Positions 6,343 to 64,000 of a stretch of 64,000 nucleotides of DNA are shown here, in pieces. Position numbers and translations under genes: made by a program. The notes under the pieces were generated by a model that worked only from the letters and a program-made list of their open reading frames with translations, did not search any database and was not told the DNA's origin. Position 1 is the first letter of the stretch. Each line of letters begins with the position of its first letter. This stretch comes from Candidatus Peregrinibacteria bacterium (GTDB lineage: Bacteria > Patescibacteriota > Gracilibacteria > UBA1369 > JABINC01): contig JABINC010000041.1 of assembly GCA_018697675.1 (NCBI GenBank), positions 571-64,570 of the forward strand, in the 5' to 3' direction.

Positions 6343-6343
6343 A

Positions 6344-37552: not shown

Positions 37553-37581
37553 TTGACAATATCGCAACAAAGTATTAAAGT
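37553..37581 (+). promoter_or_regulatory. sigma70-type promoter of the coiled-coil gene cluster
   Basis: TTGACA-17 bp-TAAAGT upstream of ATG 37614. Confidence 0.65.
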
Positions 37582-37613
37582 GCTCTCTTAATTTGTTTTT
37601 AAACCCATGTAAC

Positions 37614-40217
37614 ATGGCAAAGAAAGGAAACGGACTAGATAGATCTGATGGATCTGATAGCCCAGCAGAAACTGGCGAACTAGTCACTTTAATACCAAGT
37701 GATGATCCAAGCGCGGCAGCTCCAGATCCAGCAGCTCTAGCAACAGCAAACCCATTTCTAGGAGATGGTGCCCCTTTGACAAGAGAAATGACTGCAAGCA
37801 CAGCCCCACATTTAGCTGCCTTCACAGGAGGAACTCCAGAAGAAAAAGCTGCTCAACAAGCTGCAGAAGAAGCTGCAAAACAAGCAGAATTAGAAAAAAT
37901 TACCAGAGAAAAAGCAAGCATAGGAACTATGACACTGGAATTAACTGAATTAGAAAGACAAATCGAAGCGGCTGATACAACTAGAAAAGCAATATTAGCA
38001 CAAGCACAAGCTGAAACTGATCCAGATAAGAAAGCTGAATTAGGATTTAAATTAGCAGGAGCTATAACCACACTAAGGGCAATAAAAGCCGCTAAAAGAG
38101 AAGCAATAACTGAGCTAGCGGAAAAAGATAAAGTTGTACTTAAAGAGGTCTTGGCAGACATACGATTTCAACTCAGAGGAGATAAAGGCCCTAAAAAAGA
38201 CGTGAGACTACAAAACCTACGAAACAGCAAGGGTCAACTCGAAGCGAAAACAAACGCATTAGCAACTCAAATACGAGAAGTAGAGTTAGCAGTATCTCAA
38301 GATCGAGCAGATAGAGATACCGCTCTCAGAGCAGTAGAAGAGGCAACAGCAAAAGCAACAACCGCAGAACAAAGAATTACAGCAATTGCAACAGAGTTAG
38401 CTGAATTAGACACAGCCGTAGAAACTGACATGAACAGTGCAACAGAGACTGAAATAGAAGGTAAAAGAACAGGAGCAAGAGACCTAAGAGCTCATTTGGC
38501 GCAAGCTATAGAAACAAAAGAAGGAACGAAATTCAGGAAAAGAGAAGTAGAGTTAAGAGATCTATTATTAGAAAGAGAAGCGCTAAATGCCCAAATACAA
38601 ACAAATGCAGTCGCATTTGCAGAGAAATTAGTGAATTTCCCAGCGATAGACGCAGAAATTCGAAAGCTCTTCTCAGACACAACTACCCTACCGGAACCAA
38701 TCACTTCAGAAGATTTACCGAAAAAAGGACAAGTTCCAAGTATCACTCAATTAGAAAATTGGTATTCAAAAATCAAAGAATATCACGATACCATTATGGC
38801 GCAATTAAACCATTATTCAAATGAATATACCACGAAAACTAAAGCTCGAGATGCACTTATAGCAGCAATTACAAGCTTAGAAGGGTCACTAGGGTTCCTT
38901 GATGGAGATGTTTTAGAAAAAGTAAAGGGAGATATTACAGAGAAAGAACGCGCAAGAGATGCCAGAAACGCCGAAGCTCGGGAAATCGCAGAAAAAGGAC
39001 AAACTCTTCAAGAAAAATCCAAAGAAAAACTAAGCCTACTACGCAAAGAGATAATGTCGATTTTTGGAGATAAACATGGATATGGAAAAGTGAGAGCTTT
39101 ACAAGCATCAATTGATAAGACAAAAGGAGCCATGAAAGGTCCTGCCGTAAAAAAAGTCGAAACATATATTCAAGCAATTCAAGCAGAAGAAAGGTTAACT
39201 ACAGAAATCTCAAAACTCGACACAGAGATCGCAGAAGAAGACGCTGCACTCAAAGAGGCTAAAAGAAAAACTGATGAAAAAGAACGCAAAGCAACTGAAC
39301 TAAGAGCAGAAGATCAAGCCTCACGAAGAACTCTAGCAGAAAACCAGAGAATCGCAGAAGAAAAGAAAGCTTTTGCAGAAACGGCAGACTCAACAGCCGA
39401 AGGAAAAGAATCTTTTCTACCGAAATTACGGAACAAATTAACAACACTAGAAAAAGACCAAGCTCCACTGATGAAGGCAACTATGGAACAGCTTACCCCT
39501 CTTCAAGCAGAGGTAGAGTCACTCCAAAGAATTGAAGACATCCTAACCCAAGCAGACGCTGGTAATCTATCATTAGACGAAGACCAAGGATCAGATGAAA
39601 CACTTCTTGCAAAGGTCGAAAATTTGGACAGACGAGTAGCTACACTAACACGAGGATTGGGAACGGTTCGCGCGGACACACGCACAGCTGTAGAAGAAGC
39701 CCTATCAGAAACCCCAGAGCCAACTACATCATGGGCAGAAGTAATTAACAACATAATTGATGTATTCAGAGAGCGGAGACTCCCAGTAGCTTTGCTTATT
39801 GGAGTAATACTAGGTTTCCTGCTTACAAAATCACCTGCTCTATACACCGGAGATAATTATGAAACTCTAGAAGACCCTACAGAACAAGATACTCCAGATG
39901 AAGACGATGGACATCTAGACCGTGCTGAATCCCCTCAAACCGAAGCACCATCTCCTAGCGGTGGCCTTATAGAAGAAGCTGAAGAACTCACCCCAGAACC
40001 AACTCCAACGACAGAACCAGAAGAAGAAGAAGAAGAAGTTACTCCAGAGGAACCTATAACTCCTACTAAAAGATATGATGCTCCATCAGAATTAGAAAGT
40101 CTAAGAGAAGGATCAGGGACCGCTCCAAAGCAAGAAGAAAAAACCACCCCAGAACCGACACCAACGCCAACTCCGGCTCCAACGATCGATCTAGATGCCT
40201 TAAATGAAACTGGATAA
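37614..40217 (+). CDS. hypothetical long coiled-coil protein with one TM helix and acidic Pro/Thr-rich C-tail
   Basis: ATG 37614 (MAKKGNG); heptad-rich A/E/K/L sequence; TM LPVALLIGVILGFLL; tail TPEPTPTTEPEEEEEE. Confidence 0.88.
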   Translation: MAKKGNGLDRSDGSDSPAETGELVTLIPSDDPSAAAPDPAALATANPFLGDGAPLTREMTASTAPHLAAFTGGTPEEKAAQQAAEEAAKQAELEKITREKASIGTMTLELTELERQIEAADTTRKAILAQAQAETDPDKKAELGFKLAGAITTLRAIKAAKREAITELAEKDKVVLKEVLADIRFQLRGDKGPKKDVRLQNLRNSKGQLEAKTNALATQIREVELAVSQDRADRDTALRAVEEATAKATTAEQRITAIATELAELDTAVETDMNSATETEIEGKRTGARDLRAHLAQAIETKEGTKFRKREVELRDLLLEREALNAQIQTNAVAFAEKLVNFPAIDAEIRKLFSDTTTLPEPITSEDLPKKGQVPSITQLENWYSKIKEYHDTIMAQLNHYSNEYTTKTKARDALIAAITSLEGSLGFLDGDVLEKVKGDITEKERARDARNAEAREIAEKGQTLQEKSKEKLSLLRKEIMSIFGDKHGYGKVRALQASIDKTKGAMKGPAVKKVETYIQAIQAEERLTTEISKLDTEIAEEDAALKEAKRKTDEKERKATELRAEDQASRRTLAENQRIAEEKKAFAETADSTAEGKESFLPKLRNKLTTLEKDQAPLMKATMEQLTPLQAEVESLQRIEDILTQADAGNLSLDEDQGSDETLLAKVENLDRRVATLTRGLGTVRADTRTAVEEALSETPEPTTSWAEVINNIIDVFRERRLPVALLIGVILGFLLTKSPALYTGDNYETLEDPTEQDTPDEDDGHLDRAESPQTEAPSPSGGLIEEAEELTPEPTPTTEPEEEEEEVTPEEPITPTKRYDAPSELESLREGSGTAPKQEEKTTPEPTPTPTPAPTIDLDALNETG

Positions 40218-40254
40218 ATCGCGCAAATATAAATCCAATAATCCCAGAATTTAA

Positions 40255-41175
40255 ATGTCATCTATCAATTTTAGAAATCTTGACGAAGTTACAGACGAAC
40301 TCACCGCAAAAGGTTGGCCACAAGCCGAAACTGCAATAGATATGTGGCTAAATGCCATGAGAGTTTTGAGCGCAGAAAGAGAAAACCCAAAAGTAGCTGC
40401 AGCAATAGAAGCTTTTCGAAATCGTCTAAATGGAGCATGGAATACGATAGGAGAAGATATGGAAAAGGCTGTACTAGGACAAGCTGAACAGGTATTGACA
40501 GAACCTACAACGGAAAGCACGGAGGAAGGAGAAAATGCCAATATATTTGACATAGAGCTCGCCGTTAAAGTCCTAGGTATCAAAGAATTTTTAAAAGAAA
40601 CTTTAAAAACCTTAGAGGGCACAGATCCTAATCAAAAAGAAAACACTCTATTTGGAAAAGATCATGACAGAAGAAAAGAGGATTCAAATGCAAGAGAAAT
40701 AGCAGAAAAATATCCATGGGTCAGTATAATTATATTAAAAGAATTAATCCGAACTCTAGAAGAAGTACGTCAACCGCTTAAAGAAGCTAGAACAACGGCA
40801 GGTAGAACGACAGTAAGAGAAATCCCCAAGAAATTAGATCAAACGACTGAAGCAATCGAAGAAGCTTCTATAGCTCTAGACCAAGATTTAACAGAAGTTA
40901 GCGGGAACATAGCCAACTCAATATTAGCATTAATAACTGATGAGATTACAGAACCAAGCCAAAAAGCCGAACTCGAAAAATTATTAACAGACTCTGGCGA
41001 AGAAGAGGTAGAAGAATCTGGCGCTCTAGAAAAAGTAGAATCTTCTTCAAGATTCAATATTGGATTACTCATTAAATCGTTAAGAACAAGCATGTGGAGT
41101 AAAGCTCAAGAACTCCGATTGATAAAGTGGATAGCAAAAAAACTCTCACAAAGAAACCAAGAAGAAGACTCATAA
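40255..41175 (+). CDS. hypothetical acidic helical protein
   Basis: 306-aa ORF, same strand and codon style as neighbours; no motif recognised. Confidence 0.8.
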   Translation: MSSINFRNLDEVTDELTAKGWPQAETAIDMWLNAMRVLSAERENPKVAAAIEAFRNRLNGAWNTIGEDMEKAVLGQAEQVLTEPTTESTEEGENANIFDIELAVKVLGIKEFLKETLKTLEGTDPNQKENTLFGKDHDRRKEDSNAREIAEKYPWVSIIILKELIRTLEEVRQPLKEARTTAGRTTVREIPKKLDQTTEAIEEASIALDQDLTEVSGNIANSILALITDEITEPSQKAELEKLLTDSGEEEVEESGALEKVESSSRFNIGLLIKSLRTSMWSKAQELRLIKWIAKKLSQRNQEEDS

Positions 41176-41182
41176 ACAGCTC

Positions 41183-41211
41183 TTGACATAAGCTCCACCA
41201 ACTTGTAAAAT
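41183..41211 (+). promoter_or_regulatory. sigma70-type promoter
   Basis: TTGACA-17 bp-TAAAAT, 20 bp before ATG 41232. Confidence 0.7.
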
Positions 41212-41231
41212 CACACCTTAAATATATAATT

Positions 41232-42953
41232 ATGGCATTAGATAGGGATACAACTGGGCCAGACAGATCATACTTTGAACTCCAAGCTGATCTCGAAGCA
41301 AGAACTGAAAAACTGAGGAGGGCAGAGCTTATCCATAGTTATTTAGCAGCTCTCACAGATATAACTGATATCGAAGCAACCTTGGAAGAAGAATTTGTAC
41401 GCTTAGTCACAAGTGGAGAGCTCGGTTCTACATGGTCACCAATACAATCATATGCTGACGGACTAGAAGCAAGAGATGATGGAAATCTTGATGAAGCGAA
41501 AAATAAATTTGATGAAGTAACTCCATCAAAATTAGCAGGTTATCTACAAGTATTAGAAAGCGGTTATTCAAGTACGGGCGTAGCAAGAGACGAAAAAAGA
41601 GCTCTACAAGCAAGAAATACTGCAGTCGAACGTATTAGAGGCAAGTATTCAAATGTACAACCACACGTTGCATTTTTTCAAGCACTACACAAGGCCATAA
41701 ATGAAAAAGAACATAACGAGATAGAAAGATTATTAAATGAAAACCTACCCGATTCCATCGGACCAGAGGATGAGATTTTACCAAACAGCGCAATCAAAAA
41801 AGGAAGAAAGGCTCTAGGTCAAATAATGGCAATAGTAACAGAACTGGAAGGAATCACACCATTGAAGGCAAGGCGAACAAACACATTTGAAGATAAAAAC
41901 CTATCAGGCCGATTAACAGCATGGAAGGTGCCAAAAATAAATGAGGATCCTAATGCCACCCTGAGTCGTGAAGAATATTATTTCATCTTAAGTTACATTG
42001 CAAACAGAGGAACTAACGTAAATTCACAAATTTACCAACCAACAAACAAAACCATGCCTGAGTTAGAGGATATTAAAGAACGAAAGGCTCCATACACTAC
42101 AAAAATCGAATTAGTTAAATCTTTACAGGAAATATTTGGAACAGAATCAAAAGACGGTAAATTAAAAGATGGTGGACTTCGAGCAAGAACAGCGGACCTA
42201 AGGGGTCAATTAGAAAAAGAAGGAATAACAATCAAACCTGAATGGGAGAGTGAACCTAGCGATGCCGCCCTAAAATTTGAAGGTAAAGTACGCGAACTAA
42301 GAACTACGATAAGGGGATTAGGAAAAGATTTAGGAATTGAAAAAGGAAAAATTGAAGCTTTAGTAGCGACTGCTGATTTGGATGACATTTCTGAAAAAAC
42401 CCCAGAAGAAAAAAATGGAGAAACCCTAGAAATCCCTCTACCAAAACGCCTAGGAGGACTTGCAGCACATGCGCGCATAACAATGGGCGTTGCTATCGCA
42501 CTTCTTCTCTTATTAGGAGGTGGAACCGGCTTCGGTATCGGAAGCTGCGGACCGAAAGGTGACAGCAGAACCGAAGGTCAAGCAGGAGAAGTTGATCCAG
42601 AAACTGCCACTGAAATTGCAAGACTAAAAGCTGAAATCGAAGGATTAGAATCGACGAAAGCAGAAACTACCACAGAAGATGCAGAGAAAATAGCAGGCCT
42701 TGAAAAAGAAATTGAAGACCTAACGACTGAAATCGAGGACCTCAAAGCTGCCGGTACAGAAAACCCCGAGACAACACAAAGAATTGCAGAATTGAAAGAA
42801 GAGCTAGGACTACTAAGAGGTGCCAAAACCACTGCCGAAGGTCAAGCAACACAATGTAGAGAGGATCTAGAAGCAGTATTCGGCGTAAAAGGAATAAAAA
42901 GAGCCCTTAGCGCTGAAGGAAGGGATGATCTTCTGGCTAAAGAGCCTAGATAA
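41232..42953 (+). CDS. hypothetical single-pass membrane protein with C-terminal coiled-coil repeats
   Basis: Helical N-region, TM ITMGVAIALLLLLGGGTGFGIG, then repeats PETATEIARLKAEIEGL / EKIAGLEKEIEDL / PETTQRIAELKEELGL. Confidence 0.85.
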   Translation: MALDRDTTGPDRSYFELQADLEARTEKLRRAELIHSYLAALTDITDIEATLEEEFVRLVTSGELGSTWSPIQSYADGLEARDDGNLDEAKNKFDEVTPSKLAGYLQVLESGYSSTGVARDEKRALQARNTAVERIRGKYSNVQPHVAFFQALHKAINEKEHNEIERLLNENLPDSIGPEDEILPNSAIKKGRKALGQIMAIVTELEGITPLKARRTNTFEDKNLSGRLTAWKVPKINEDPNATLSREEYYFILSYIANRGTNVNSQIYQPTNKTMPELEDIKERKAPYTTKIELVKSLQEIFGTESKDGKLKDGGLRARTADLRGQLEKEGITIKPEWESEPSDAALKFEGKVRELRTTIRGLGKDLGIEKGKIEALVATADLDDISEKTPEEKNGETLEIPLPKRLGGLAAHARITMGVAIALLLLLGGGTGFGIGSCGPKGDSRTEGQAGEVDPETATEIARLKAEIEGLESTKAETTTEDAEKIAGLEKEIEDLTTEIEDLKAAGTENPETTQRIAELKEELGLLRGAKTTAEGQATQCREDLEAVFGVKGIKRALSAEGRDDLLAKEPR

Positions 42954-43021
42954 TCAATCCAACCAACTACAACGGTACGCGCTAAACCGACCACCATATT
43001 TCCCATGCCACGTCAAGCCAA

Positions 43022-43046
43022 GCTCCCTTAAGAGGAAGCCTTTTTT
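43022..43046 (+). terminator. weak intrinsic terminator candidate
   Basis: GCTCCCT-TAAG-AGGAAGC (one mismatch) followed by CTTTTTT. Confidence 0.4.
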
Positions 43047-43047
43047 G

Positions 43048-43056
43048 TGGTAAAAT
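43048..43056 (+). promoter_or_regulatory. extended -10 promoter candidate for the giant ORF
   Basis: TG-G-TAAAAT ending 54 bp before ATG 43111. Confidence 0.5.
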
Positions 43057-43110: not shown

Positions 43111-46100
43111 ATGACAGGTCCTTACCACAGATTCGGCCCAAACGATCCATTCTCCTCACCTTTTGGAGCTCAAGACAATGATCTCGAAAAAAGGCTTGTT
43201 TGGAAAACAGGAGAAGATGAACCAAGTGGAAACATAGGACCAGGAGAGTTAGAAATACCAAGAGGTCCAGAAGACATAGGACGTACATTTCAAGAAAACG
43301 AAGCTACTGAAGAAGACATATCGGAAATGCTAGCACAGCTAGACAATCCAGAAGAAAAAATGAATGCAACTATAGACCGAATTCTGCCAGAACTTGAAAG
43401 AATAAATGACATAGGCACTCAATTCGAAGAAGCTAGACAAATCAAAGCTTACCCCCCCACAGAACTAAAAGTAAGAGAAGTTGGAATGGATCCAAAGCTC
43501 ACTGACGATATAGTTCAAGGGCAAGAAATTTTGAAGATATTTGAAACAAGAACGGCAAGCGCACTTACAATTGAAGATTTCAAAGCTAGTAAAAGCTTAA
43601 GAGAATTATACGAAAAACAAGGTAGAGACAAACCGAAAACAGGTAGTATAAATTTTGATGATCCAGAATATTTTCGTGACGAAATTGGATTAATCAAAGA
43701 AAGTATGAAGTTTATAGGGGAACGCTCAGGAGTAGAACCAGAGACAATCGAAAGATACCAAGCTACAGTTACAGAACAAGCTATATTAGAATCTGCCGAC
43801 ATAGAGACTTTCAAAGAAATTGCCACAGGAATTTCTAACAAAAGACGATTTGTTGCTAGTGCAAAAGTTATACAAAAACTCGAAACCCATGGATTCACAA
43901 CCTTTGAAGAATTCCAAGGCTTTTTCTATACAAGCAGCGGTAGCAGTACAAAAGGGATTGATGCATATCTAAAAGAACTCGATATATATGATTCATTAAC
44001 AGCAAAAGAAAGAAAAGATGTACGCGCAATTTGTGATCGCCCCATTCTGGCAAAACTATATGAAGTGGCAACGCTTGAAAAAGAAGAAGAAGAAAGTGCT
44101 CGAAGACTAGCGGCCAAAGAAGCTGAAGATCAAGAAGAAGAACGCAGAAGACAAGAAGAAGAAAGGAGGATGGAACAACGCAGACAAGAGCAAGAAAAAG
44201 AAAGAGAAGAAAGAGAGCGGAGAGAGGCAGAAGGGAGAAGGCAGAGAGAACAAGAAGAAGCTGAGGCCGAGGCTGCACGACTCGAAGAACAACTAGAAAG
44301 AGATGAAGCCGCCAGAGAACGAAAAGCACCAATCAAAGAGGCAATCGATAGAACCAGAAGTTATCTGGACGGCATCGATACATCCTCAGCAACTTGGGAC
44401 AGCCTCAAGCAATGGGAAGAATTGCAGGGAGATGCTACTGACGAACTAATAGAGGAATTCAATAACACCGATACATTCAGAGAACTGAAAGAAGAGTATA
44501 TTGAAAAAACAATGGCAATTTACATTCAGGATTTGCAAGCTCTCGATAAAGACGCATTCATAACCAAAGCCACAGATGAACAAGTTTACAGAGAGAAACA
44601 GAGTTCAGTAATGCAAACTGGAGACGGCCCAATAACACAGCCAGCTCAAAATAAATTTATGGCTAGAACTGTATTTTCATTGGCATTAAAACAAATTGGT
44701 CTAAATAGCGAAATTCACTTTTATACAGGAATGGGGGCTGACAGAAGAGAAGCAATGCTACAAGACGTTGAAAACCTCTTTGCGGTATTTGGCACAAACG
44801 ATCCAAATGTAGATGTAAAACCAGATACAACGGATACGGAATTCGCATCAAGATTCGAAAGATTCAAAACAACAAGACTGGGAGCCACAACTACTACAAC
44901 GGTTGCAACTGGCCCAAGCAAGACAGGCCCTACCCTACCAGAAGATCCACTTAAATACAGAACGGATGCAGTCAAAGAGGCGGGAGGTCATTACGAATCG
45001 CTTAATGACTTACATGGAGGGGCAAGAACAGATTTAAGGAACAAATATTACCCGCAAGCAGCAAAAAAATACGAATTACTTATAAAATTAATAGAGGAAA
45101 ATTACGGAGACAAAATAGAACCAGGTAAACACAACCCAAATAACAAAGCGCAAATTACTTACAAAAAAGCTGTAATAGGCTTAATAGCCTCATATAACGG
45201 GTTTTCTCCAACTTCAACTAAAGAATTTGAAAGTCGAGCAGCTCTAGCGCAGCAACTTTCAGCAAGAGAAGGTATATTCACAACCGAAGAAGTAAGCTCT
45301 ATCCGAACTATAGCAAGAACATTCAATATCAAACTACAACCTCGAACAAAAGTAAAAGTCATTGGAACCGGTCGCCTAGAGTTATCTCAATCAATAGAAA
45401 ATACAGACCCTGAGATTCTAGAAGCATTCCAAGCTTTAGAAGAAAATATAAATTCAGGTGCTGAAAAAGAGCATGGAAATGAAACATATATATATGGAGA
45501 TGAAAATGTAGAATATTTATTCGGAGCACATTCAATGCAAGCAAGTGCAGACATGAAAACCATAATGATAAACGGGACGCCACTCTCATTAGTAGGAATG
45601 CGAAAAGGAGGCAAATTAGTCCCAAAAGAAGGCCTTTCTTCAGAAGAACAGGCAGAAATAACCGCAGGCACCACAATAGGTGAATTACTCATAAGAGAGT
45701 TCACTGTCAAAAATCGCCTCGGAACTTACAAAATTAAAGTCACACCAGTAATCCCAATGGGAAGCGATGAAATATTGCGCCTTTCAGTAACAATCACCGA
45801 TCCTGAAGGCAAGGAAGAAAAAATACCAGTGAGAGAAAAAGAAATGCGTTTTGGAGGAGTGAAAAAGAAGGTAATTACAAAGAAAGATGGAGAGCTAATC
45901 GTAGATCTAGGCAAATTAAAAGATGAATCAGGGAAAACAACCCTTGCCTCAGCGGAAATCAAACCACTAGATGAATCTGGAATACCAAAGGACCCACGTG
46001 CTCTACCAGGCTACATGTCAGAAGCTATAGAACTACATACAACACAGGGAGGGAATTTATCAGGATTGATACAAATTGCAGAAGCGATAGAAGAAAGATT

Positions 46101-58100: not shown

Positions 58101-61100
58101 GGTATTTGATCAACAGGAATTTGCATTGGATAGGATTCAAGGCGGCGGAGATAAACTACACTCGTTCATGGAATACGCTCTACGCATGCATGAAATGGGC
58201 AGAGATGAAAAAGGAACCGACCGACCAAACAGATCAGAACTACAAGCTGGGGAAACAGAAAAATACAGAGATCCATTCGAAGCATTCTCAAACAGAGATT
58301 CTGCATGGGATCAATATCTAGGAAGAACTTTTGACAGTGAAGGAAATAAAGAAAATATTGACGCTCTAAGAACTGAGTACGCAGATAGGATGCTTCGCCA
58401 AGGTATGTCAGCTATGCGAATTCTCTCTGTCTACCCAGACAGTTGGGATCCTAGATTTGAAAAAATGATAGATGGGGATACGATAAGTGACTTCTACGAA
58501 AGCATACAAGTACTACTCGGCGAAGAGGCGGTTGAAACTCTCGGACTAGAAGAAGGCGGTGTACTCAGGGGAATCGAAAAACTTCAGGATTCAGAAATCT
58601 CATTTTTTGGAGCAGAAAATTCGCAGCGCCTTGCAGAATTATCAGAAAGACAAATCGGAGCTTTGGCTACCGTAGTCCAACTCGGAAAAGTCTACGAAAA
58701 AGTACTCATTCACGGAATTGAAAGAAAAGAAGCGGTATTCCAGGCATTCGCACTACATAAATATTCAGAAGGAGATCTCACAGTAGACCTACCTGAAATA
58801 TTACGTGCACAAGACCGAATGTTCGCAGCTCAAGGTATCGTATTAACTCCAGAAGAGCTTTATTCAATCGGAGAATCGCTTGTAAAAAGAATTGAAACCA
58901 ATGGAATCCCAACTCTAGTGCAGAGTGCAGAAGCTTACCAGACTGGAAGTGAATACATGGATTTCCGTACCCTACTCGCATTCCCACCAAACGGAATCAC
59001 AAAGAGAAGGTACGAAGAAATGGAAGTGTTTATAGACAGAATTTCCAGAGATACAAAAGATTCTTCAGAAATAGACTACATAACTATGACGAATGCTTTG
59101 ACTGATTTCCCAGATCTACTAGCAGATGATGAAGAATTTATGGCTTGGAAAATGAAGGTGTTGAGTGATTTCGATGACCAAGAAGTACAAGATGCAATTG
59201 CTCCATATGCAAGCGATGAGCTAAAAGAAAACTTCGGAGAATACTTAGACGCATACATAAAAATACGCCGATGGGACAGACAAGTAACGGACTCTTATAC
59301 AGAACGTGTAGAGCGCCTATTCGGAGATTTAGCTGGAGAAGAATTGGCTAAAAACATGCCAATGTATTTAAAAAAATATGAAGAAATTCAAGGAAAAAAA
59401 GAAGTGCAAAACGAGCTCCCATACATAGCAGAATATGTATACTTAAGAGATAGTTTTGAATCAGCTAAAAAAGGACTACCGAGAGGAATAATGAAATTAC
59501 AAATGAAAGCTCTTGAGAAAAAAGAAGGATTCGACATGAGCAATGTGGATTTATACGATTCTTTACAAACAAAGATCGACCTACTCTACAAAGAAGGAGA
59601 TGAGTTGCCAGATGGCAAATATCCAATAGAAAAATTAGAAGAAATACTCGTACTGAACTTCGGCGGCATCCTAACTCGCGCTCTTTATGACATGGAGGAA
59701 GAAGCCTCTATGAATTTATTTGTAGGACTTGGAATAGATGTGAATATTTCAGCTAAACGTGCGGCCCTCGGGATAAATGTAGGAACAGAATTAAGCCCGA
59801 CAGATAGGCTTGATCTACTAGTCGTACTCTCCCCTGGCAATCAATTTCGAATATCAGGAGGAGCAATGAAAACTTTTGAAGATCTAGGTAAAGAAGATCA
59901 AGGAACGCTAGAACTATTCATACATGCAGGAGGAGATTTCTTGAGAGGAGGATTCGTCGGAAGTGCAGGATTTGACCACAGAACACAAGTAAAAGATAAC
60001 TTAGAAGTCGGAGGAGGAGCATTTATAAGTGCAGAGGCAAGTGAAGCATCTGTAAAATTAATGGCTGGAGGATCATTTGGAATCCATACACTATCTCCAG
60101 AAAGCCTCGAAGAAAAATACGCAGAACAACTGGAGGAAGCTAGGAAGGGCCCATTAAAAACAGAATTAAGACGCCTCGATGATTACTTCAAGAAACATCC
60201 AGACTTCCGAGAACTGAGACCAACTGAATTAAAACCAATAAGAGACGGTATTGAAAAAGCAATGGAAGAAATATTACTCATGGCAATTATCGATGCAGAA
60301 GCGGGAGGAGCAGCAATGCCAAAAAACATACCAATATTCAAAGGAATTGAATTCGGAGGAAGCGCGGGAGTAGGATTTGATCCTAAAGCGCCATTCAAGA
60401 GTCCACTCTATCTGAATGCATTCATCGGAGTAAGATTGTCAGTAGACGGAAGAATCGTCATGCGAAGACTTGTAGATCCAGAACATATCATGGACGAAGC
60501 TTCTGATACGGCAATCATGGAAACAATGAAAGATGAGAAAATAGTTGCCGGAGAAATGAACTTGGGTGCACCTATTTCAATCGAAGGCCTAAATGTATTC
60601 TCAGCGGCGCGCGCAAGAGAAATTCTCAGAAGTTGGAGCAGAATCGAAGGACAAGCGAAATTCTACGAAGCAGGATCAGGTTCGGATAAAACTAGAAATC
60701 CAGAAGGAGAAATTGAACTCGAACTCAAAAATCACTACGAAATGACTGTTGGAATTGAATCCAAAGAAAAATTCATGAAGAAACAAAGAGAGCGATTCTC
60801 AGGATACTTAGCAGATTACAACAGAGATATATCTCCAGCGGAAGTGCGATTTGACCAACTAGAGAGTGAGGATTCATACCGAGCTCGCATGACTCTTTCA
60901 AATACGCAAGGTCACACAGAAATCCACATAGATCCTCAGGCAGAAGACCTGGTCTCAGTGGATCCAGAAACCGGAGATCTAATATTTGATTTCTTTAGTG
61001 GCTTCCCAATCATTACAAAAGAAGTATTCGAATACGAATCAAGTCATTACGGAGCAAATACACTAAACGTATATACAATCCGATTTAACAGACACTTAAC

Positions 61101-64000
61101 AAGAAGAGAAATCGAATCAACAGAAAAAGGCTACTACTACATAGCTCATAATTCGGATAAAGTTAAATCTCGAGCAGTTCGCCTGAAACCATACCGAGCA
61201 ATCGAACGAGATCTTACAATGATAGAAAAAGCCGAATCAAAGGGGTCAGAGGCCTTCTCAGAACAATACGAAGACCTAGATAGCTGGCTCGATCATATAA
61301 ACAGCGCACGCAGCAGCTTCACCGATCGCTACGAAGGAGGCGAAATTATCAATCCAACACATTCAGAACTATCCAACAGGAGGATGGATCAACTAAAAGG
61401 TGATCTAGAATCATTCATGCCAGATGAATTTGGCCAGTTTGAGACAAGAGATCCTGAAAAAAGAAGAAAACTCATGGACAGAAGACAACAAATTGAGACC
61501 TTCTTTACAATCAGCGCCTTATCCGGAGTAGATAAACACAATAAACGCACCCTACTCGACTCAGGAGATTCAGACATGTTGGATGTATACAGAGAGGCAG
61601 AAATTCTCATCGACATGATACAAACTTGGTACACCGAAGAAGGGAAAGCCCGCCTAACAAACGAGGAGCTACAATACTTCCTTGGAGAAATGATCTTCAG
61701 AACGTTTTTCAACATTCACCGTGGGAAATACGAAACTAGCGGATATAAACCACCACAAGGCAGCGAGGTAATTCGAGAAAATCCATACTTCGTAACTCCG
61801 GGAGAGATATTCGACGATCCAGATGGGAATCGTGAAGACCCTAAAAAAACTCCTAGCAGAAAACATCGAATATACGTAACTATGGGACGATACCTGGCTC
61901 ATTTGAAAGGACATGCTGCAGACATGGCCAGAGGGATTGCTACCAACTATGTAAACAACCATCCAGACTCAAGGGACAAAGAAGCTCGAATTACAGCAAT
62001 GACTGATGATTTGATCGACCAAATATACGGTTACATACCGCAGCAAATTGCAGAAAAACTCGGTAAAACCCCAGAAGAAGCAGAGGAACTAGCAGAGTAC
62101 CTACTTTACAGAAACCTCGAAGATAGAATGACAGATAAATCCAGAGACTATTATATAAAAGCGCTTGGATTTGAAAAATTCCATGGAAACTCAGAAGACG
62201 CAAAGCAGAAAAGAAAAGACATGGATGAAATATTCGCAAAACCAGGAACCTTAAAAGCAATTTATGAAGTTTATGAAAGCGTATTTGGACCTAGTAACCA
62301 AGCGGAAGCACAATATTTAGAAAATCTAAATCCTGCATTCGCATCAGCACGTGGATTCACGGTAGAAGGCAAATACAACGACAAAATAGATGGCAAACAT
62401 TGGTACATGGCTGGTGGACGAGCGGTAGAAGCGATTAGCACGCAATTCGGAGGTCTCCGCCGTGCCGAAATCTACAAATTAAACGAACCAAGACGCCCAG
62501 GAGAAACTGCAGAAGACTATCAAGAGAGACAAGAGAGAGCAGAGGCAATATTAGAATACATGGCACCTCTAGCTCCAATAGGATCAGAAGGCGCAGAATA
62601 CTTCCCTCAATCAGAGGCAGATAGATTTTACTTCTTTGAAGGAGATGAAAATATAGAAGACCGAATCGAACATTCCCAAACAGAGAGGCAAGAAAGAGAT
62701 GGAGCAATCAAAACCTCAAAAGAAAAATACGATGCCATCACGATGACCTATACCGATGTGAAAGAATATTTATCAGCTCCATTGGGACTGATGATACTCG
62801 AATGGGCAGCGCTTTACCTTCCACAAGGACAGGCAGAAACAATGTACGACCTATTTGACACGGTACGTGATAAAGAAGAATTCAAAAGACTCGAAAAGGC
62901 TGGAGCAGTACTAAACCAAGACGAAAAAGAAGCATTCGCAGAATTCGTAAACCTAAATCAACTATTCCGAGAAATTGCCAAATTCCGAATGGATGGCGAT
63001 AAAAATGCATTCGACATGGTCGGATTAAACGAAAGTGAATACGAAGTGCAAATCCGATACGTACCTATTGATAACATCAACAACGGGATCGACAAATTAA
63101 CGGATAATTTGACTGGAATTCGTTTAGATACTCCTTTATCTGAGCTTCAAGACAACGCTAGAGATTTCCTAAGTACACAACTGGACAGAGACAATGCTGA
63201 AATAGATACAATTTTAACAAAATTCACAAACCCAACTGAATTAGCTTTAGAAATCTACAGACAAGCTCTTACACAAATGACCGGGCTATCAAGCCAAAAG
63301 ATCAAAACGATTTTAGCGAGCACCACGGATCCTGCAGAACTTCTAGAAAACGTGCAAAACGTAATTCAAGAGGAAAACCGAACAGACTACATGAACAAAA
63401 CTCGCGCAATCGTAGATGGTCGCGAACAAGATGTAATCCCAATGGCATTTATATTTAGCCACAAAAATCCTGACAATGTATCTCTAGTGAACGTCAGCGA
63501 ACTTGTAGCCCTAATCACATTCGGTAAATGTGGTAATTGGTCTACTGGATACAAAGCCGCATTGACAAACTTCACCCTCGATCAAACCAGCTCAACATAT
63601 GGGAAGGGACCAAAAGGAGTCAAACGTATCTCCACCGGAGCACCTAAACCAAAAATCGAAACATCCAGCGGAGAACTCCCAATCGGCTTCAACATCGGCG
63701 GCGCTATCAGAAGAGAGGATCCAGAGCCTATAGATAACACGGGGGACAAGGTTTCTCCAACAAGCTCTACAGATACTGATGTTCCAGACAATCAACAAGA
63801 AGGTGAAGATGGATACATAGATCCAGTTACTGGAGAATTCGTTCCATGGGATACAACAACTGGAGTACCTCCAATAGATGAAGCTGAGCCAACCTACCAT
63901 GCAGAAGACTTCACAATCGGATCCGGCACAGGAACATATGGTTCAAAAGAAAAGCCTAAGGGAATAGGTCGAAAAAAGAAAAAAAAGAAGAGAAAGAAAA
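43111..64000 (+). CDS. giant hypothetical protein (>=6,963 aa), 3' end beyond window
   Basis: ATG 43111 after A-rich leader. Frame +1 was stop-free wherever spot-translated (MTGPYHRFGP...GIGRKKKKKKRKK at the edge), and the ORF track lists no terminated frame +1 ORF here. Consistent GAA/GCA-rich codon usage. Confidence 0.93.
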   Translation, partial: MTGPYHRFGPNDPFSSPFGAQDNDLEKRLVWKTGEDEPSGNIGPGELEIPRGPEDIGRTFQENEATEEDISEMLAQLDNPEEKMNATIDRILPELERINDIGTQFEEARQIKAYPPTELKVREVGMDPKLTDDIVQGQEILKIFETRTASALTIEDFKASKSLRELYEKQGRDKPKTGSINFDDPEYFRDEIGLIKESMKFIGERSGVEPETIERYQATVTEQAILESADIETFKEIATGISNKRRFVASAKVIQKLETHGFTTFEEFQGFFYTSSGSSTKGIDAYLKELDIYDSLTAKERKDVRAICDRPILAKLYEVATLEKEEEESARRLAAKEAEDQEEERRRQEEERRMEQRRQEQEKEREERERREAEGRRQREQEEAEAEAARLEEQLERDEAARERKAPIKEAIDRTRSYLDGIDTSSATWDSLKQWEELQGDATDELIEEFNNTDTFRELKEEYIEKTMAIYIQDLQALDKDAFITKATDEQVYREKQSSVMQTGDGPITQPAQNKFMARTVFSLALKQIGLNSEIHFYTGMGADRREAMLQDVENLFAVFGTNDPNVDVKPDTTDTEFASRFERFKTTRLGATTTTTVATGPSKTGPTLPEDPLKYRTDAVKEAGGHYESLNDLHGGARTDLRNKYYPQAAKKYELLIKLIEENYGDKIEPGKHNPNNKAQITYKKAVIGLIASYNGFSPTSTKEFESRAALAQQLSAREGIFTTEEVSSIRTIARTFNIKLQPRTKVKVIGTGRLELSQSIENTDPEILEAFQALEENINSGAEKEHGNETYIYGDENVEYLFGAHSMQASADMKTIMINGTPLSLVGMRKGGKLVPKEGLSSEEQAEITAGTTIGELLIREFTVKNRLGTYKIKVTPVIPMGSDEILRLSVTITDPEGKEEKIPVREKEMRFGGVKKKVITKKDGELIVDLGKLKDESGKTTLASAEIKPLDESGIPKDPRALPGYMSEAIELHTTQGGNLSGLIQIAEAIEERFSNLEYENALCFAEMCAIVADRVFKQTIKKPQITLSEFNSGIELALKYQKKAKTYREKAGDVTQEGVDLDFIDETIHDHLLNILVPVQVSDTNKKYELKRTAKEGLINPETKELSEAIDRAVADLNTKRKKPKFRKDNKNPDGSITVYMMPEDSLNGVEISSGTTALSLKQIDEDEQARLATLDTEQRRQEEEARRRQAEEEAESRRQAEEEARRLAEEQERLRQEEQERQAALAWAGIDGKIEAIPDTEEELAAISTEILLQWYDPTEYDIAKKQFKLPESLLNKVIATYGLTNDRETLKQAYAEKTIEPNEVMQLSAILEKSKVVEEYFQPGHRAAKQDYDPALARINDLDDPLYEKLRDAAGITEVVAEGPTEVEQLTALAIESLKKLDFSRENLIAVAEMHMTIVGDAKPRRDEEKIDAVALIQFALNKQGGGISEEKAREIFNDSSEEDFDRMTESYQQLTAQYNDIVNVNSKLLTYTKTLVKEVVENSSTWGDKSWYEFRAFAYGTLENKMQSFTETDLESLRVWFNETTGKRAIALDAEPADTVLKDKTDFLEKLPVTANGNPDPAKIAEEFTLFEIARIYSKTNRLDGDAVVAMHLDKSLTDKGTIDKKAEEITDLIILNIETPERDKSSEQIMKCMKAIKKYCEDILTRRQYRAERRTVDTIRKVRAQNPKAMELDKYLALLPDGFPEDIEAQLRAEYLEKIGGGESIEKEDTIAWIKAMFPDASAIDAALNMGNIPANPNAALHALATMDNIALSAIENISTTEAPNGLLIIRDFESAKQKLRGTPTLRTELFTTPRVAGRYAARVAELRKAEKQFVLDETYKKYYKPTERQDSYPLGRDADIAGFRDATKGRLNGEDSINIVAKEGETEEMIESIWQTQFDSAFAQLSSPAMDKIETKYAAPDKMKKAIKDLGEPVPESFNEFIGRMKLGEVGEADPAKRYFTIFEEFYSKDESPNSPAEVLEADLKKLFKEIQPIVLAEFQEGQAQTEREQAIAEAKTALAQLPQEAGDRTRQLLTMNSGTTKEELLTDLKRTLGSSITKILAYPDETGVSINPLNDANSKTYEAAIRAAVGTKVAKLTEDESKEKLRTSETLNDLITAEGLDAFLSLEKADDEPSYAESLRSEYQRLAESYAEAKLESISADIEDPKKFGWVFVSDSLTDEHTAQADGTPYQSRDELRRSWLQGKTYDPAKFAEWYLEALNIPGKYARSIRTSSQTKTPIKEAFASSEKVKSILLFDYALTSTESRVSRADTATIQKWLDTTLVPEDRDPEKTRYPKIFYPQLFLEWVNEEFLNLDLTNVLTSEDKWDKDRRNKEIGKYLKELVAEDRVKEAVREFPEGVPVEELQETTKQLFQTDALNIYANAEQLIETLEAHYKTEGKLVELDSNPNGDPDRYDRFRQVALTALAGKFDHFKTSGFEIAEDETMRTSWLNMIQTYNLRSFAPHSFEIFDTTGGRGRKHVDLRDELDKTIGDLMTEAVDTFAEKYLEEALNDISLPAVKFRRYFAVAVAGDRIKYNAKTFYRAIAEGELPAGAGKEEAQNLEYITHFLENFDFAGTERKIKVQIAPETEALDTLYFYSGIPSAVKKWEEKSEKTWEQHATEGRTQKPRKATQAFITWFREELQTGTTPLELKSIKDEAILSELDQRIMDASDGKSTVELDLLNPLNPWEFEAMPEDEFKTAVADATKEIIEGRSDPLGEKGPDFSAANPKIGLIDLLATIDSRFPKNIIPDHSEAYYIILETALDAKMPFVKKAAEEASDWADLVAEYNLVGYMPELNRIDEAERFADSWSKANPTATFNDFETALRAEGLNPHSLLILERTIKIIQSNMIAARETELQEITGKGRMATRRRAEIAGKYNLETFAKTNWEAKNEITKKYYSQFAKLAKTVAENAAVTFATDLGKKKDWDEIAPDMQIDWDATPGEESDPDAAIQDDRETTSAIVKKSEFYLSFKERQKYFDFKAQSYDADKFFEWYIKNDSNFPADFKKESRFDVLPPQKRGVINEVLNEQKDLILLDTALSIATKEEALKKPVDALKLWLDGYNPVEDRIEGKVEISVDKFLEWVIKDETNMIDTEVVEVEVELDEGVKKNIGQTLLTFWKKELDAIVGPKERAKIEVEEIAANKDYAKDWVKKEDVIKLAGGPINYFTREKVFPKFDDPDQKIDSKTEKLIDQFTSDSADYLKIDGKLRPLDFGEVEKKRISTTLRQIDYRNEILPGADELVATEKRIATALTKALIAKITVGGTLQTQSFKDEKEALEVQLGLAPHTKKHADLPIIKSPVGQRAGQDEFFRELIDRFINPKTYGITMKGIDSHLLPFSKTGAGAEGKEILVADLEALLTRLENEYGYKSSDKDIGGIRDAVEDRPYLEARFEAAFREQQKEGRRDINNSEDQEFFEHGLTALTEKVAKGENIEEDLRKLTGSFSETLQEALEAEAMKYILVNTMEVLAVENPEALKTMADPAIDEKASFFRYLEYVGERTGLLIRNDDEINDVRLKAIFQSLLVITRSDDPEVPDERYDGRKNLYERFYDFSNNNLSYGEDREFRLWLDDSPGKLNPDEFLAEFKLLLKESTTSKEIKEHFERLEAFKNYLTSNVYANEISLTENLDGTLKTDSEGEDIWSLIRRLEANLIIEGQEEFLNLSPEEKLTQMVPMYEAAFMKHGSAEVDILEKLEKAQYDKLMGIRADREITYPQLSMIADIAGVILSPKEKGSKEIVIKENTDYIDLTKNPEEKDDMDTMEVIANNIRHYIDLRSNRRPSEGELRTERDLIEEIQYIYTKDVDKFDYPAVITRVLKAGKESKKWTSIKISEDIFLHNVIGNYPEQMDDIITMYMAGDDHNGYFYKYMQRQRYNRNPEALKSLKVEDLAKNLKEASGMPIRYLKKHFGLAAALEEYQEAALSPNDWLDLVVERRQTELEGLESELLKSKKDILEKKLKELEELEREKIGLEEQKEELEEDGGTYIEYDEGGDDPNADRRDTPIRIALDSEDGLAQDVDIDTVGDPVEELDNQIDVIEAQISELEWAIEFFHSLDGEIEGIEDEGVKTFIQKKLETLTEENFIQTMHDIDLIWSTIRNTEPELPGEAETIEISEEIDGSIPPRRQKWYDEILEFRNRDAADPTLEAEVVEAAQTLTRDLEQSSKKDNDIDVGEDLENHLAILEDESALRTAALMSQLLTTGNLDSDSEEIPTMAESEFDTLLMSVFSDENAFRTFSTAKRLTLESLADTWQAELNTERRKEIFQTLKKEFFRSIDSTFLAIAERSKTPEEYRTVMSYLVEKGDKNFQLQERYRYLFYELTKYAIPKETSETDKTGHELTEKEAFIDEKRAGLARDLSYQGALLEQEFRASTLNKGGKDNLKDSKVDFSNFQHLSKNVFTEKFRYAVRGGDFLTGREAERVYGSALGMLEASKAGRHDIIGFGDLALYSFYAKEKPKWYDPLALQKPKTALHAKEKFFTEFEELETLVKLQKTHKGDFEDGNYENEDWYKKDYLPAATSAALRVTDGQGPVYKALMEELKAGGMPHVLDVKHLRMEQFIVDSAKVIRVLERINQDIAIENLAANAEDYGKVETIVTYIETIYADDFADGSYETKDWYNKEYLPMIEVATRELKLTDEMVESLKKGELTEEIKELITEYNELPRSFKEIYEKIGYNKLSPKDREKVSPAELINLYELLLTQSKIYSTYSAKIHSNEGEKLIHEEWVAEWVEESYKPTMLEAVGLLNLDLTENEWESLKDPSSITVPQSLREMLDAYRSARPEILEAAHKDWTFKERKHAKKYDRIHESIISNKELLDPATHKDLRLHEGFMEAAETNPEYEFDDLRNAAGPYSEHDIAFNHPLTERLPQIDSFEAIYISDQFVKTFIEEFKMLDGIKPARKRALVEKFRKNPEDIAKLFYAANGIDALHRNPWDTFKINFEKDAAGEPTGRKWLVLDPIQFNIHQFVEHNADLLGSVEFKKPKPKEIFENPEGEGLIGIVSRIEEFEHVVFDQQEFALDRIQGGGDKLHSFMEYALRMHEMGRDEKGTDRPNRSELQAGETEKYRDPFEAFSNRDSAWDQYLGRTFDSEGNKENIDALRTEYADRMLRQGMSAMRILSVYPDSWDPRFEKMIDGDTISDFYESIQVLLGEEAVETLGLEEGGVLRGIEKLQDSEISFFGAENSQRLAELSERQIGALATVVQLGKVYEKVLIHGIERKEAVFQAFALHKYSEGDLTVDLPEILRAQDRMFAAQGIVLTPEELYSIGESLVKRIETNGIPTLVQSAEAYQTGSEYMDFRTLLAFPPNGITKRRYEEMEVFIDRISRDTKDSSEIDYITMTNALTDFPDLLADDEEFMAWKMKVLSDFDDQEVQDAIAPYASDELKENFGEYLDAYIKIRRWDRQVTDSYTERVERLFGDLAGEELAKNMPMYLKKYEEIQGKKEVQNELPYIAEYVYLRDSFESAKKGLPRGIMKLQMKALEKKEGFDMSNVDLYDSLQTKIDLLYKEGDELPDGKYPIEKLEEILVLNFGGILTRALYDMEEEASMNLFVGLGIDVNISAKRAALGINVGTELSPTDRLDLLVVLSPGNQFRISGGAMKTFEDLGKEDQGTLELFIHAGGDFLRGGFVGSAGFDHRTQVKDNLEVGGGAFISAEASEASVKLMAGGSFGIHTLSPESLEEKYAEQLEEARKGPLKTELRRLDDYFKKHPDFRELRPTELKPIRDGIEKAMEEILLMAIIDAEAGGAAMPKNIPIFKGIEFGGSAGVGFDPKAPFKSPLYLNAFIGVRLSVDGRIVMRRLVDPEHIMDEASDTAIMETMKDEKIVAGEMNLGAPISIEGLNVFSAARAREILRSWSRIEGQAKFYEAGSGSDKTRNPEGEIELELKNHYEMTVGIESKEKFMKKQRERFSGYLADYNRDISPAEVRFDQLESEDSYRARMTLSNTQGHTEIHIDPQAEDLVSVDPETGDLIFDFFSGFPIITKEVFEYESSHYGANTLNVYTIRFNRHLTRREIESTEKGYYYIAHNSDKVKSRAVRLKPYRAIERDLTMIEKAESKGSEAFSEQYEDLDSWLDHINSARSSFTDRYEGGEIINPTHSELSNRRMDQLKGDLESFMPDEFGQFETRDPEKRRKLMDRRQQIETFFTISALSGVDKHNKRTLLDSGDSDMLDVYREAEILIDMIQTWYTEEGKARLTNEELQYFLGEMIFRTFFNIHRGKYETSGYKPPQGSEVIRENPYFVTPGEIFDDPDGNREDPKKTPSRKHRIYVTMGRYLAHLKGHAADMARGIATNYVNNHPDSRDKEARITAMTDDLIDQIYGYIPQQIAEKLGKTPEEAEELAEYLLYRNLEDRMTDKSRDYYIKALGFEKFHGNSEDAKQKRKDMDEIFAKPGTLKAIYEVYESVFGPSNQAEAQYLENLNPAFASARGFTVEGKYNDKIDGKHWYMAGGRAVEAISTQFGGLRRAEIYKLNEPRRPGETAEDYQERQERAEAILEYMAPLAPIGSEGAEYFPQSEADRFYFFEGDENIEDRIEHSQTERQERDGAIKTSKEKYDAITMTYTDVKEYLSAPLGLMILEWAALYLPQGQAETMYDLFDTVRDKEEFKRLEKAGAVLNQDEKEAFAEFVNLNQLFREIAKFRMDGDKNAFDMVGLNESEYEVQIRYVPIDNINNGIDKLTDNLTGIRLDTPLSELQDNARDFLSTQLDRDNAEIDTILTKFTNPTELALEIYRQALTQMTGLSSQKIKTILASTTDPAELLENVQNVIQEENRTDYMNKTRAIVDGREQDVIPMAFIFSHKNPDNVSLVNVSELVALITFGKCGNWSTGYKAALTNFTLDQTSSTYGKGPKGVKRISTGAPKPKIETSSGELPIGFNIGGAIRREDPEPIDNTGDKVSPTSSTDTDVPDNQQEGEDGYIDPVTGEFVPWDTTTGVPPIDEAEPTYHAEDFTIGSGTGTYGSKEKPKGIGRKKKKKKRKK

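Follow-up and report, generated by a model that had tools for sequence, protein, structure and literature searches.

Four consecutive genes at one end of a 64,000-nucleotide (nt) stretch of DNA from a marine Candidatus Peregrinibacteria bacterium raise the question of whether they build one cellular structure, and of what the last of them, which encodes a giant protein of 6,969 amino acids (aa) and 794 kDa, belongs to. The stretch, which we refer to as the window, corresponds to C25:571-64570, that is, to part of one contig (C25) of a 1.46-Mb, 76-contig genome that is 94.6% complete (G000, the own genome of the giant). Peregrinibacteria are uncultured and host-dependent, and their largest genes are blank in every annotation. 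A previous sequence-only reading of the window had regarded all four genes as orphans and had proposed that the products of genes 1 and 3 anchor an apparatus that includes the giant protein. Our analysis leads to a different picture, in which the giant is an enormously expanded member of a protein family of its order and its conserved partner is a secreted protein encoded downstream. The three upstream genes are private to this lineage.

Genes 1 to 4 are open reading frames (ORFs) under translation table 11 and lie on the + strand. The giant gene, the fourth of them, occupies window positions 43111..64000 (+) and runs 20 bases beyond the window end, to a stop at window position 64020 (C25:64590) that we read in the contig.

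A family of large proteins across the order

A profile of aa 5481-6680 of the giant defines a close family of six proteins among 1.84 billion representatives, all of which have the C-terminal ~2,300 aa and a tail rich in Lys in common. The same profile (A1) weakly matches one ~120-aa block in large ORFs of other families of the order, found in genomes G005, G073, G107, and G106. A search of the order with the 1,682-aa protein of G005 in turn gives matches at E<=1e-5 in 45 of 205 genomes; every matched ORF has 1.3-3.3k aa, and the similarity mostly concerns the last ~530 aa. We named this family of large, acidic, signal-less proteins of the order, whose members measure 1,363-3,344 aa elsewhere, BIGFAM. 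A hidden Markov model (HMM) was built from the last 750 aa of 25 BIGFAM members, none of them from the close family of the giant; two sequences that lack a stop and three whose ends are aberrant were excluded. The resulting HMM matches all six close-family proteins collinearly (P0005-P0009 in 2-3 blocks), with E values in a set of ~330 ORFs of 1.2e-13 for the giant (aa 5884-6204) and 3.7e-15 for the corresponding giant of G001, a genome of the same genus.

The BIGFAM members share a C-terminal module of ~850 aa, which in the giant extends over about aa 5634-6967 (60010..64000, +; positions 5648-6981 of the stop-to-stop frame in profile A5). In the 34-row alignment behind profile A5, three residues are invariant in all 34 rows, namely R716, C752, and N754 in the numbering of the first row, which correspond to R6620, C6807, and N6809 of the giant. 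In the giant, the Cys and the Asn belong to a KCGNWS motif (63526..63543, +), and this invariant Cys-x-Asn pair is located in the last beta-hairpin of the module. Profile A5 detects the module in 55 of 65 sampled genomes of the order (~85%). Outside the order, it weakly matches 4 of the 8 genomes of one family and none in the other ~330 of 336 genomes of the class. In front of this conserved part, the N terminus of BIGFAM varies in length from 500 to about 5,600 aa. The 4,965-aa giant of G001 is collinear with the 6,969-aa giant at 29-38% identity, and the latter exceeds it by ~2,000 residues that lie mainly between aa 1213-2178 and 2658-3795.

Two side observations concern the ends and the reach of the family. 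The close-family members finish in a Lys/Arg-rich tail behind a Gly/Pro/Thr-rich linker (here KKKKKKRKKK, window positions 63980-64000; also in P0006-P0009), and more distant BIGFAM members end in Gly/Pro/Thr/Glu-rich low-complexity tails. Moreover, ORFs of 3,200-4,000 aa in genomes G222, G236, G258, and G276, which belong to one family of another order of the same class, weakly match the module profile (E values of 1e-6 to 1e-7) at positions 85-242, where the hairpin and helices lie; these ORFs may encode distantly related proteins from beyond the order.

Library searches with the giant yielded nothing usable. When it was divided into four overlapping pieces, 4/4 matched 0 Pfam families, and no NCBIfam or PHROG family scored above threshold. 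The PDB holds no sequence match for the giant, and profiles A5 and A6 likewise found none that was usable. A word-index search among proteins of 3,829-12,186 aa returned the query itself and nothing else, metagenome contig scans with profiles A3 and A1 recovered no relative, and the sole relative in the genome contig scan was a contig of G002, a genome of the same family. For the last 1,563 aa of the giant in the window, the ESM Atlas gave an uninformative score of 0.80.

The giant contains 6 Cys in 6,969 aa and has an isoelectric point (pI) of 4.8. A Kyte-Doolittle scan reveals no hydrophobic segment in it, and its N terminus, MTGPYHRFGPNDPF..., is not hydrophobic and has no Sec signal peptide; the frame is open for only 14 codons upstream of the ATG. 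No internal repeats emerged from self-BLAST, which gave the self match only, and Tandem Repeats Finder (TRF) located a single 21-nt array of 47 bases in the gene. A composition scan picked out an E/R/K-rich segment at aa 320-397 (44068..44301, +) and further E/R/K-rich stretches at aa 1180-1227 and 3938-3971, all of which could serve as single alpha-helix spacers. The own genome also encodes a second huge ORF of 5,486 aa (contig C41:93081-109538, +) and about ten more ORFs of 1,500-2,550 aa. We considered the 5,486-aa ORF as a paralogue of the giant and rejected it, as BLAST gave no match to the giant (nor to genes 1-3).

The conserved locus, its secreted partner, and the upstream genes

BIGFAM genes also keep a fixed position in the chromosome. 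We fetched 8-20 kb around the big protein, as far as the contigs allowed, at 22 loci from other families. Of these, 21 have a tpiA homologue upstream of the big-protein gene in divergent orientation, as does G001, and the gene order across the order reads truB-mur-ribF-hpf-tpiA, followed divergently by big protein-secreted protein-holA. Taken together, the HMM matches, the collinearity, the invariant residues, and the locus indicate that the giant is not an orphan; judged by sequence and position, it is an enormously expanded orthologue of BIGFAM. The earlier description of all four genes as orphans thus survives for genes 1-3 and fails for the giant.

The secreted protein of this locus, which we named SECC, has 1,000-2,300 aa, a Sec signal, and a conserved C-terminal domain of ~390 aa. 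The next same-strand gene downstream of the big protein carries the SECC domain in 16 of the 22 loci. At five others, the downstream ORF starts with a hydrophobic signal and is cut by the end of the contig or of the fetched stretch; the one remaining locus, that of G017, is weighed further below. The gaps between big protein and SECC commonly measure 9-35 nt, and in many loci the gene after SECC is holA. The signal peptides of SECC proteins are classical and their Cys content is 1.5-2.6%, and the proteins match no family beyond Cys-rich or Ser-Asp repeats; the G001 copy matches the Myxococcus Cys-rich repeat (TIGR02232, DUF4215).

The same pairing is apparent at the level of whole genomes. The SECC domain occurs in 167 of the 205 genomes of the order, mostly as a single copy. 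From a joint reading of coordinates, a SECC domain lies 3-11 kb downstream of the BIGFAM module, sharing its contig and strand, in 42 of the 55 BIGFAM-positive genomes. In the remaining 13, BIGFAM and SECC are on different contigs or SECC is not among the matches listed, and no case of the two on one contig but apart was seen among the matches listed for the 55 genomes.

In the own genome, SECC starts at C25:64675 (window position 64105), 84 bases after the stop of the giant and outside the window. It is split by an assembly gap into C25:64675-68729 (the first 1,351 aa) and C30:3-3458 (the last 1,152 aa), and holA and gatA follow it on C30. Because SECC is split over their ends, C25 and C30 are neighbours, although no exact overlap of the two ends was found. 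We therefore place the partner of the giant on the other side from that proposed earlier: the sequence-only reading had looked for it among genes 1-3, and the conserved partner is instead the downstream SECC. Gene order and family distribution point to the giant and SECC, not the four genes, as the conserved functional unit, a new near-universal two-gene module of the order that is present here in its most inflated form. What was called a giant orphan has thereby become tractable: its family occupies a fixed locus, is present in ~85% of the genomes sampled in the order, and comes with a secreted partner that looks obligate.

Two further observations were made on members of this module. Genome G019 holds a 5,576-aa ORF that weakly matches the module (C13, ~61597-62193, -; E 3e-12) and has a SECC domain ~9.5 kb downstream, which looks like an independent expansion of the same gene. 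The own SECC C-terminal domain (locus L079:2259-3458) has its two nearest ESM Atlas clusters at scores of 0.89 and 0.88, with 198 and 193 shared features. These clusters consist of 318-338-aa proteins, and their commonest recorded phylum is Saccharimonadota; as a lead only, the SECC domain may be wider in the candidate phyla radiation.

The left border of the locus is tpiA (36789..37559, -; PF00121, E 3.3e-31), and the - strand upstream of gene 1 carries tpiA, hpf, ribF, Mur ligase, and truB. Gene 1 (37593..40217, +) encodes 874 aa from a TTG start, or 867 aa from the ATG at 37614 that is the start in the database record. Gene 2 (40255..41175, +) starts 37 nt behind gene 1, with no promoter-like site in the gap, and encodes an acidic protein of 306 aa without a hydrophobic segment, and gene 3 (41232..42953, +) encodes 573 aa. 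Together, these three genes take up the 5.5 kb from tpiA to the giant; the corresponding gap in other families is about 100 bases. The ORF coordinates, a pI of 4.70-4.95 for all four proteins, and the PF00121 match of tpiA confirm the earlier description of four consecutive, co-oriented, acidic genes that diverge from tpiA. No Rfam match was found in 36500-64000.

Gene 1 is composed of a heptad-rich N-terminal part of ~720 aa, a hydrophobic helix at aa 729-752 (nt 39777-39848), and a 122-aa acidic, Pro/Thr-rich tail. Gene 3 begins with a 408-aa N-terminal part, continues with a hydrophobic helix at aa 409-440 (nt 42456-42551), and closes with 133 residues that include a heptad stretch. The Kyte-Doolittle scan gave exactly one hydrophobic segment for each of them (aa 729-752 of 874 and 409-440 of 573) and none for gene 2 or the giant, in agreement with the earlier assignment of a single transmembrane (TM) helix toward the C terminus of genes 1 and 3. 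Since basic residues precede and acidic residues follow each helix, genes 1 and 3 read as probable N-in/C-out membrane proteins. The claim that all four proteins are helical was only partly right: strong heptad windows cover 38% of gene 1 and 12% of gene 3 by a crude home-made score, and the C-terminal module of the giant is mixed alpha/beta in AlphaFold2 (AF2) models.

No Pfam, NCBIfam, or PHROG family scored above threshold for genes 1, 2, or 3, and the PDB returned no match by sequence. Across G000, G001, and G002, genes 1 and 2 matched only themselves; gene 3 matched only itself in a search of 41 related genomes. We considered a membrane-fusion (HlyD-type) protein for gene 3 and rejected it, as the HlyD_2 match reaches 23 bits where the cut-off is 25.1 and is confined to the coiled stretch at aa 450-548. 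The layout disagrees as well: the TM helix of gene 3, at aa 409-440, is not N-terminal and lies behind a 408-aa part read as cytoplasmic. Likewise, we rejected genes 1-3 as split pieces or paralogues of the giant, since BLAST linked them neither to another ORF of their genome nor to the proteins of G001.

The conservation of the four-gene neighbourhood was examined in the nearest genomes, where genes 1, 2, and 3 have no detectable homologue (G001 and G002). The order in G001 is truB, Mur ligase, ribF, hpf, and tpiA, facing a single + gene for a 703-aa protein and then the 4,965-aa giant, downstream of which come a 2,254-aa protein with a signal peptide, holA, and an amidase. Only one gene thus separates tpiA from the giant there. 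The 703-aa protein repeats the architecture of gene 1, with 572 heptad-rich residues, a helix at 573-593, and an acidic Pro/Thr-rich tail, and yet the two cannot be aligned (BLASTP E = 1). Between G000 and G001, identity is 78% for tpiA, 78% for gatA, and 63% for holA, versus ~35% for the giant and ~40% for SECC. As the housekeeping neighbours are 60-78% identical (truB 44%) while gene 1 is unalignable, the locus evolves much faster than its surroundings. By this comparison the four genes are not a conserved unit, which is a sobering outcome for the proposed apparatus.

One way to understand genes 1-3 is as functionally unrelated, young or fast-drifting genes that have settled in a permissive site beside the giant. 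Genes 1 and 3 found only themselves in a 5.8-billion-protein database (within the length windows and the sensitivity of the word index), and genes 1-3 have neither homologues in G001 or G002 nor, by BLAST against its ORFs, paralogues in their own genome. The content between tpiA and BIGFAM also varies: small, unrelated ORFs of 574, 225, 187, 190, and 288 aa, none with a hydrophobic segment, occupy this place in 5 of the 22 loci from other families. The parallel architecture of the G001 gene at the same place argues otherwise, as does the state of the genes themselves, which are long, intact ORFs (874, 306, and 573 aa) with codon usage inside the 5-95% range of the genome. In addition, four seawater DNA runs, each from a different study, yielded low-depth contigs that carry the stretch 37400-47399 at >=99% identity. 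Over these 10 kb, 5 bases differ and there are 0 indels, a set too clonal for a selection test. Given the genome-typical codon usage and the indel-free recovery from four independent runs, genes 1-3 look like real and stable genes, and we regard a chance gathering of unrelated genes as rather unlikely. The three are nevertheless private to this lineage.

The opposite explanation is the apparatus proposed at the outset, a filament, attachment, or secretion structure in which the giant would be held at the membrane through contacts with the helical protein and the two single-pass anchors. It draws on the co-orientation, tight packing, and similar acidity of the four genes. The predicted N-in/C-out topology would put the large parts of genes 1 and 3 into one compartment with the signal-less giant, the cytoplasm, and the gene of like architecture ahead of the giant in G001 would allow an anchor-giant pair to persist in the genus. 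Moreover, anchors were seen only where the N-terminal part of the giant is greatly enlarged. However, genes 2 and 3 are not found in G001 or G002, the similarity of gene 1 to the 703-aa protein has no significance, and 0 of the 22 loci fetched from other families hold a co-oriented single-TM gene between tpiA and the big protein. A promoter-like site of its own also precedes each of gene 1, gene 3, and the giant. We therefore consider a dedicated four-gene apparatus unlikely.

These promoter-like sites were scored as matches out of 12 and are consensus matches only. Gene 1 is preceded by TTGACA-17-TAAAGT (37553..37581, +; 10/12) and gene 3 by two overlapping sites that begin at 41183 and 41203 (41183..41230, +; 11/12 and 10/12). 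The site before the giant, TTAAGA-17-TAAAAT with an upstream TG, scores 9/12 and lies at 43028..43056 (+). Thus, two of the promoters listed earlier, at 37553 and 41183 (10/12 and 11/12), are where they were said to be, and the third, listed at 43048, has its real place at 43028-43056. The whole region contains 12 promoter-like sites versus 10.8 +/- 3.5 in shuffled sequence, which is no excess.

A separate observation came from the seawater contigs. Those of two or three independent runs stop matching exactly at window positions 37881, 40681, 42210, and 47073, and beyond these points they continue in one common, unlike sequence. This pattern suggests that a variant strain co-occurs, in which near-identical and divergent segments alternate, mosaic-like, along genes 1-3 and the giant gene.

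Predicted fold and place in the cell

An AF2 model of the C-terminal module was obtained for the member from G003 with the 34-row alignment, and it reached a mean predicted local distance difference test (pLDDT) value of 79, and 630 of its 850 residues score >=70. Both ends of the model form long beta-hairpins, hydrophobic and rich in Gly (residues 1-41, 126-169, and 725-801). The model further contains a beta-rich domain at 214-390 that holds the most conserved block, two helical regions, and a disordered low-complexity tail. Thus, the ~850-aa module folds confidently in prediction, with three invariant residues and no known structural relative.

Combining the fold with the locus, we favour a reading in which three parts go together: the orthology of the giant with BIGFAM, the pairing with SECC, and a cytoplasmic scaffold with lineage-specific anchors. 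BIGFAM would be an extended scaffold that remains inside the cell, lying in the cytoplasm or against the inner face of the membrane. Its Gly-rich, hydrophobic beta-hairpins, together with a tail that is basic or of low complexity, would attach it to the membrane. It would work with the secreted, adhesin-like SECC to build or position a cell-surface or attachment structure. Genes 1 and 3, as N-in/C-out anchors, and the soluble gene 2 would be fast-evolving add-ons to the enlarged N-terminal part of the scaffold. As one package, we judge this somewhat more probable than its opposite, with most of that weight carried by the orthology and the pairing; the scaffold mechanism by itself is possible but doubtful. 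An envelope or attachment role is plausible.

Several results weigh against this reading and should be set beside it. The good model is that of the G003 member and not of the giant: AF2 of the giant's own aa 5481-6680 with 6 sequences gave a mean pLDDT of 45.5 and was not used for the fold search. Foldseek of the G003 model against the PDB produced nothing meaningful (best E 8e-4, at a TM-score of 0.10), and against BFVD it produced nothing at E<=0.001. With VIA-align, the best matches were small 8-stranded barrels at Z 8.8-6, against a stated background of the tool of 7-8, and they included a soluble DUF3224 protein as well as OprF, PagL, NspA, and designed transmembrane barrels. The part that would form the barrel is also the less confident one, with pLDDT 42-75 for strands 1-41 and 126-169. 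A barrel within the module is tentative because the Z values fall within the background and these less confident strands are involved; as modelled, the module has no convincing structural relative, only borderline matches to small beta-barrels. The functional reading as a whole draws on gene order, predicted localisation, and a predicted fold that lacks an informative relative. Within it, the cytoplasmic placement of BIGFAM comes solely from the missing signal peptide, so that non-classical export is possible, and the ties of genes 1-3 to the giant consist of adjacency, orientation, and shared composition. Finally, G017 departs from the pairing, in that holA directly follows the big protein and no SECC is adjacent. 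Its big protein, at 1,363 aa, is the shortest of the family (G017:C35, locus L061, 4528-8619 and then 8646-9623), and the SECC profile finds nothing in the whole G017 genome (97% complete). A complex prediction with BIGFAM module residues 214-812 and the SECC C-terminal domain gave no answer (score 0.00) and counts neither way.

An exported giant would turn the scaffold around: it would be a surface fibre or adhesin with the C-terminal beta-hairpin barrel as its anchor or pore in the membrane of the bacterium or of its host, the N terminus as passenger, and SECC displayed alongside. The variable N terminus in front of a conserved C-terminal module has this form. In addition, transmembrane beta-barrels make up ~30 of the 50 best VIA-align matches (OprF, PagL, NspA, OmpW, and designed ones, with BrkA at Z 5.8 and AIDA-I at Z 5.5), and a Gly-rich segment that is Kyte-Doolittle-positive lies 650-860 aa before the C terminus in 10 of 22 members. 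Fast evolution is also known of surface proteins, and large ones have been reported for relatives in the available parts of two papers (PMC4736985, PMC8080830). However, an N-terminal hydrophobic segment is absent in 24 of 24 BIGFAM loci, which leaves 0 of 24 members with a signal peptide. Omp85/BamA (PF01103) gave 0 matches in the own genome, 94.6% complete, while the control was positive in 7 diderm genomes, and a classical outer-membrane barrel is therefore unlikely. The Z values stay within the tool's background and the barrel strands belong to the low-confidence part of the model. The giant is also almost Cys-free and strongly acidic, unlike the Cys-rich exported proteins of the group. 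On balance, an exported giant is improbable.

A prophage remnant or mobile island with a giant tail-fibre-like or tape-measure-like protein is extremely improbable: giant orphan genes with coiled-coil neighbours do occur in phages and there are weak PHROG matches (E 7e-5 to 3e-3, to SbcC-like and unknown families), but these matches are coiled-coil noise, 30000-64000 contains 0 tRNAs, no flanking repeat is longer than 38 nt, the codon usage of genes 1-3 is typical of the genome, the BFVD fold search came back empty, and the tpiA-holA position is kept across an order in which the gene is near-universal, so the earlier argument against a recent prophage stands.

The scaffold paired with a secreted partner continues to be the reading that we prefer. 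Regardless of mechanism, BIGFAM and SECC offer two near-universal targets for enrichment culture, metaproteome, or cryo-tomogram work, and the sizes of BIGFAM, 1.4k to 7k aa, offer a natural series in which to study the growth of bacterial proteins to giant length, both its course and its reasons.

Relation to known systems

A possible functional likeness of the preferred scaffold is found in the attachment organelle of Mycoplasma (HMW1/2/3, P65, and P200), which has, beneath the membrane, large acidic proteins without signal peptides, a long coiled-coil protein, and Pro-rich acidic segments. The cytoskeleton of this organelle positions surface adhesins in a wall-poor, host-attached bacterium. 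Its proteins are marked by an EAGR box or an acidic proline-rich domain, and the tail of gene 1 is, by eye, acidic and Pro/Thr-rich. The likeness would be functional only, as no sequence or domain similarity was found, with 0 Pfam families for gene 1, gene 2, and the giant. Carried to its full extent, the comparison would make BIGFAM and SECC an undescribed envelope-spanning apparatus that defines this order and is a counterpart of the attachment-organelle cytoskeleton. In it, a cytoplasmic scaffold of 150-800 kDa would be fixed to the membrane by its C-terminal beta-hairpin module and coupled to a secreted adhesin; lineage-specific growth of the N terminus would set its length (6,969 aa here and, as a separate event, ~5,600 aa in G019), and new tail-anchored coiled-coil proteins would be recruited to it. 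We consider this full version quite unlikely.

Autotransporters (type V secretion) have a layout similar to that of BIGFAM, a long, variable N-terminal part followed by a conserved C-terminal part, here predicted to contain a small beta-barrel. However, the giant has no signal peptide and no Pfam autotransporter match, and its genome has no Omp85 insertase. For the 12-stranded outer-membrane barrel of autotransporters, the Z values of 5.5 to AIDA-I and 5.8 to BrkA lie within the background. A repeat adhesin (RTX, Bap, MSCRAMM, Ig-like, or cadherin) was considered as well and rejected for the giant, which has no repeats, no Pfam match, and no signal peptide.

Very large proteins with proposed attachment roles have been described, in the available parts of the reports, for Omnitrophota (bioRxiv 10.1101/2023.11.21.568195) and as giant membrane proteins for Vampirococcus (PMC8080830). 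They resemble the giant in being very large and fast-evolving and in belonging to ultra-small, host-dependent bacteria. As far as these reports are available, however, they carry many TM regions, SecA DEAD domains, or known adhesion domains (WD40, PKD, DUF11, and integrin), whereas the giant has no TM helix and no Pfam domain.

Closer relatives of the host bacterium provide a comparison for the secreted partner. Ca. Peribacter riflensis has large, exported, Cys-rich proteins with weak similarity to the Myxococcus Cys-rich repeat (PMC4736985, available part). SECC resembles these proteins in its signal peptide, its length of 1,000-2,300 aa, and its 1.5-2.6% Cys. The giant, with no signal peptide and 6 Cys in 6,969 aa, is of the opposite type, and the available part of that paper does not mention the pairing of a signal-less big protein with a secreted one. 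More generally, the literature that was available, with subscription papers and supplements outside the scope, contained no description of BIGFAM or of the BIGFAM-SECC pairing.

Finally, a survey of huge bacterial proteins names Cand. Peregrinibacteria among the phyla most prone to proteins of >5,000 aa, none of which has a COG (PMC11573180, available part). The giant fits this description, and the supplements of the survey may list it. In its available part, the survey gives no family, gene context, or partner for such proteins; unlike there, the giant is placed here in an order-wide family with a fixed locus and a secreted neighbour.

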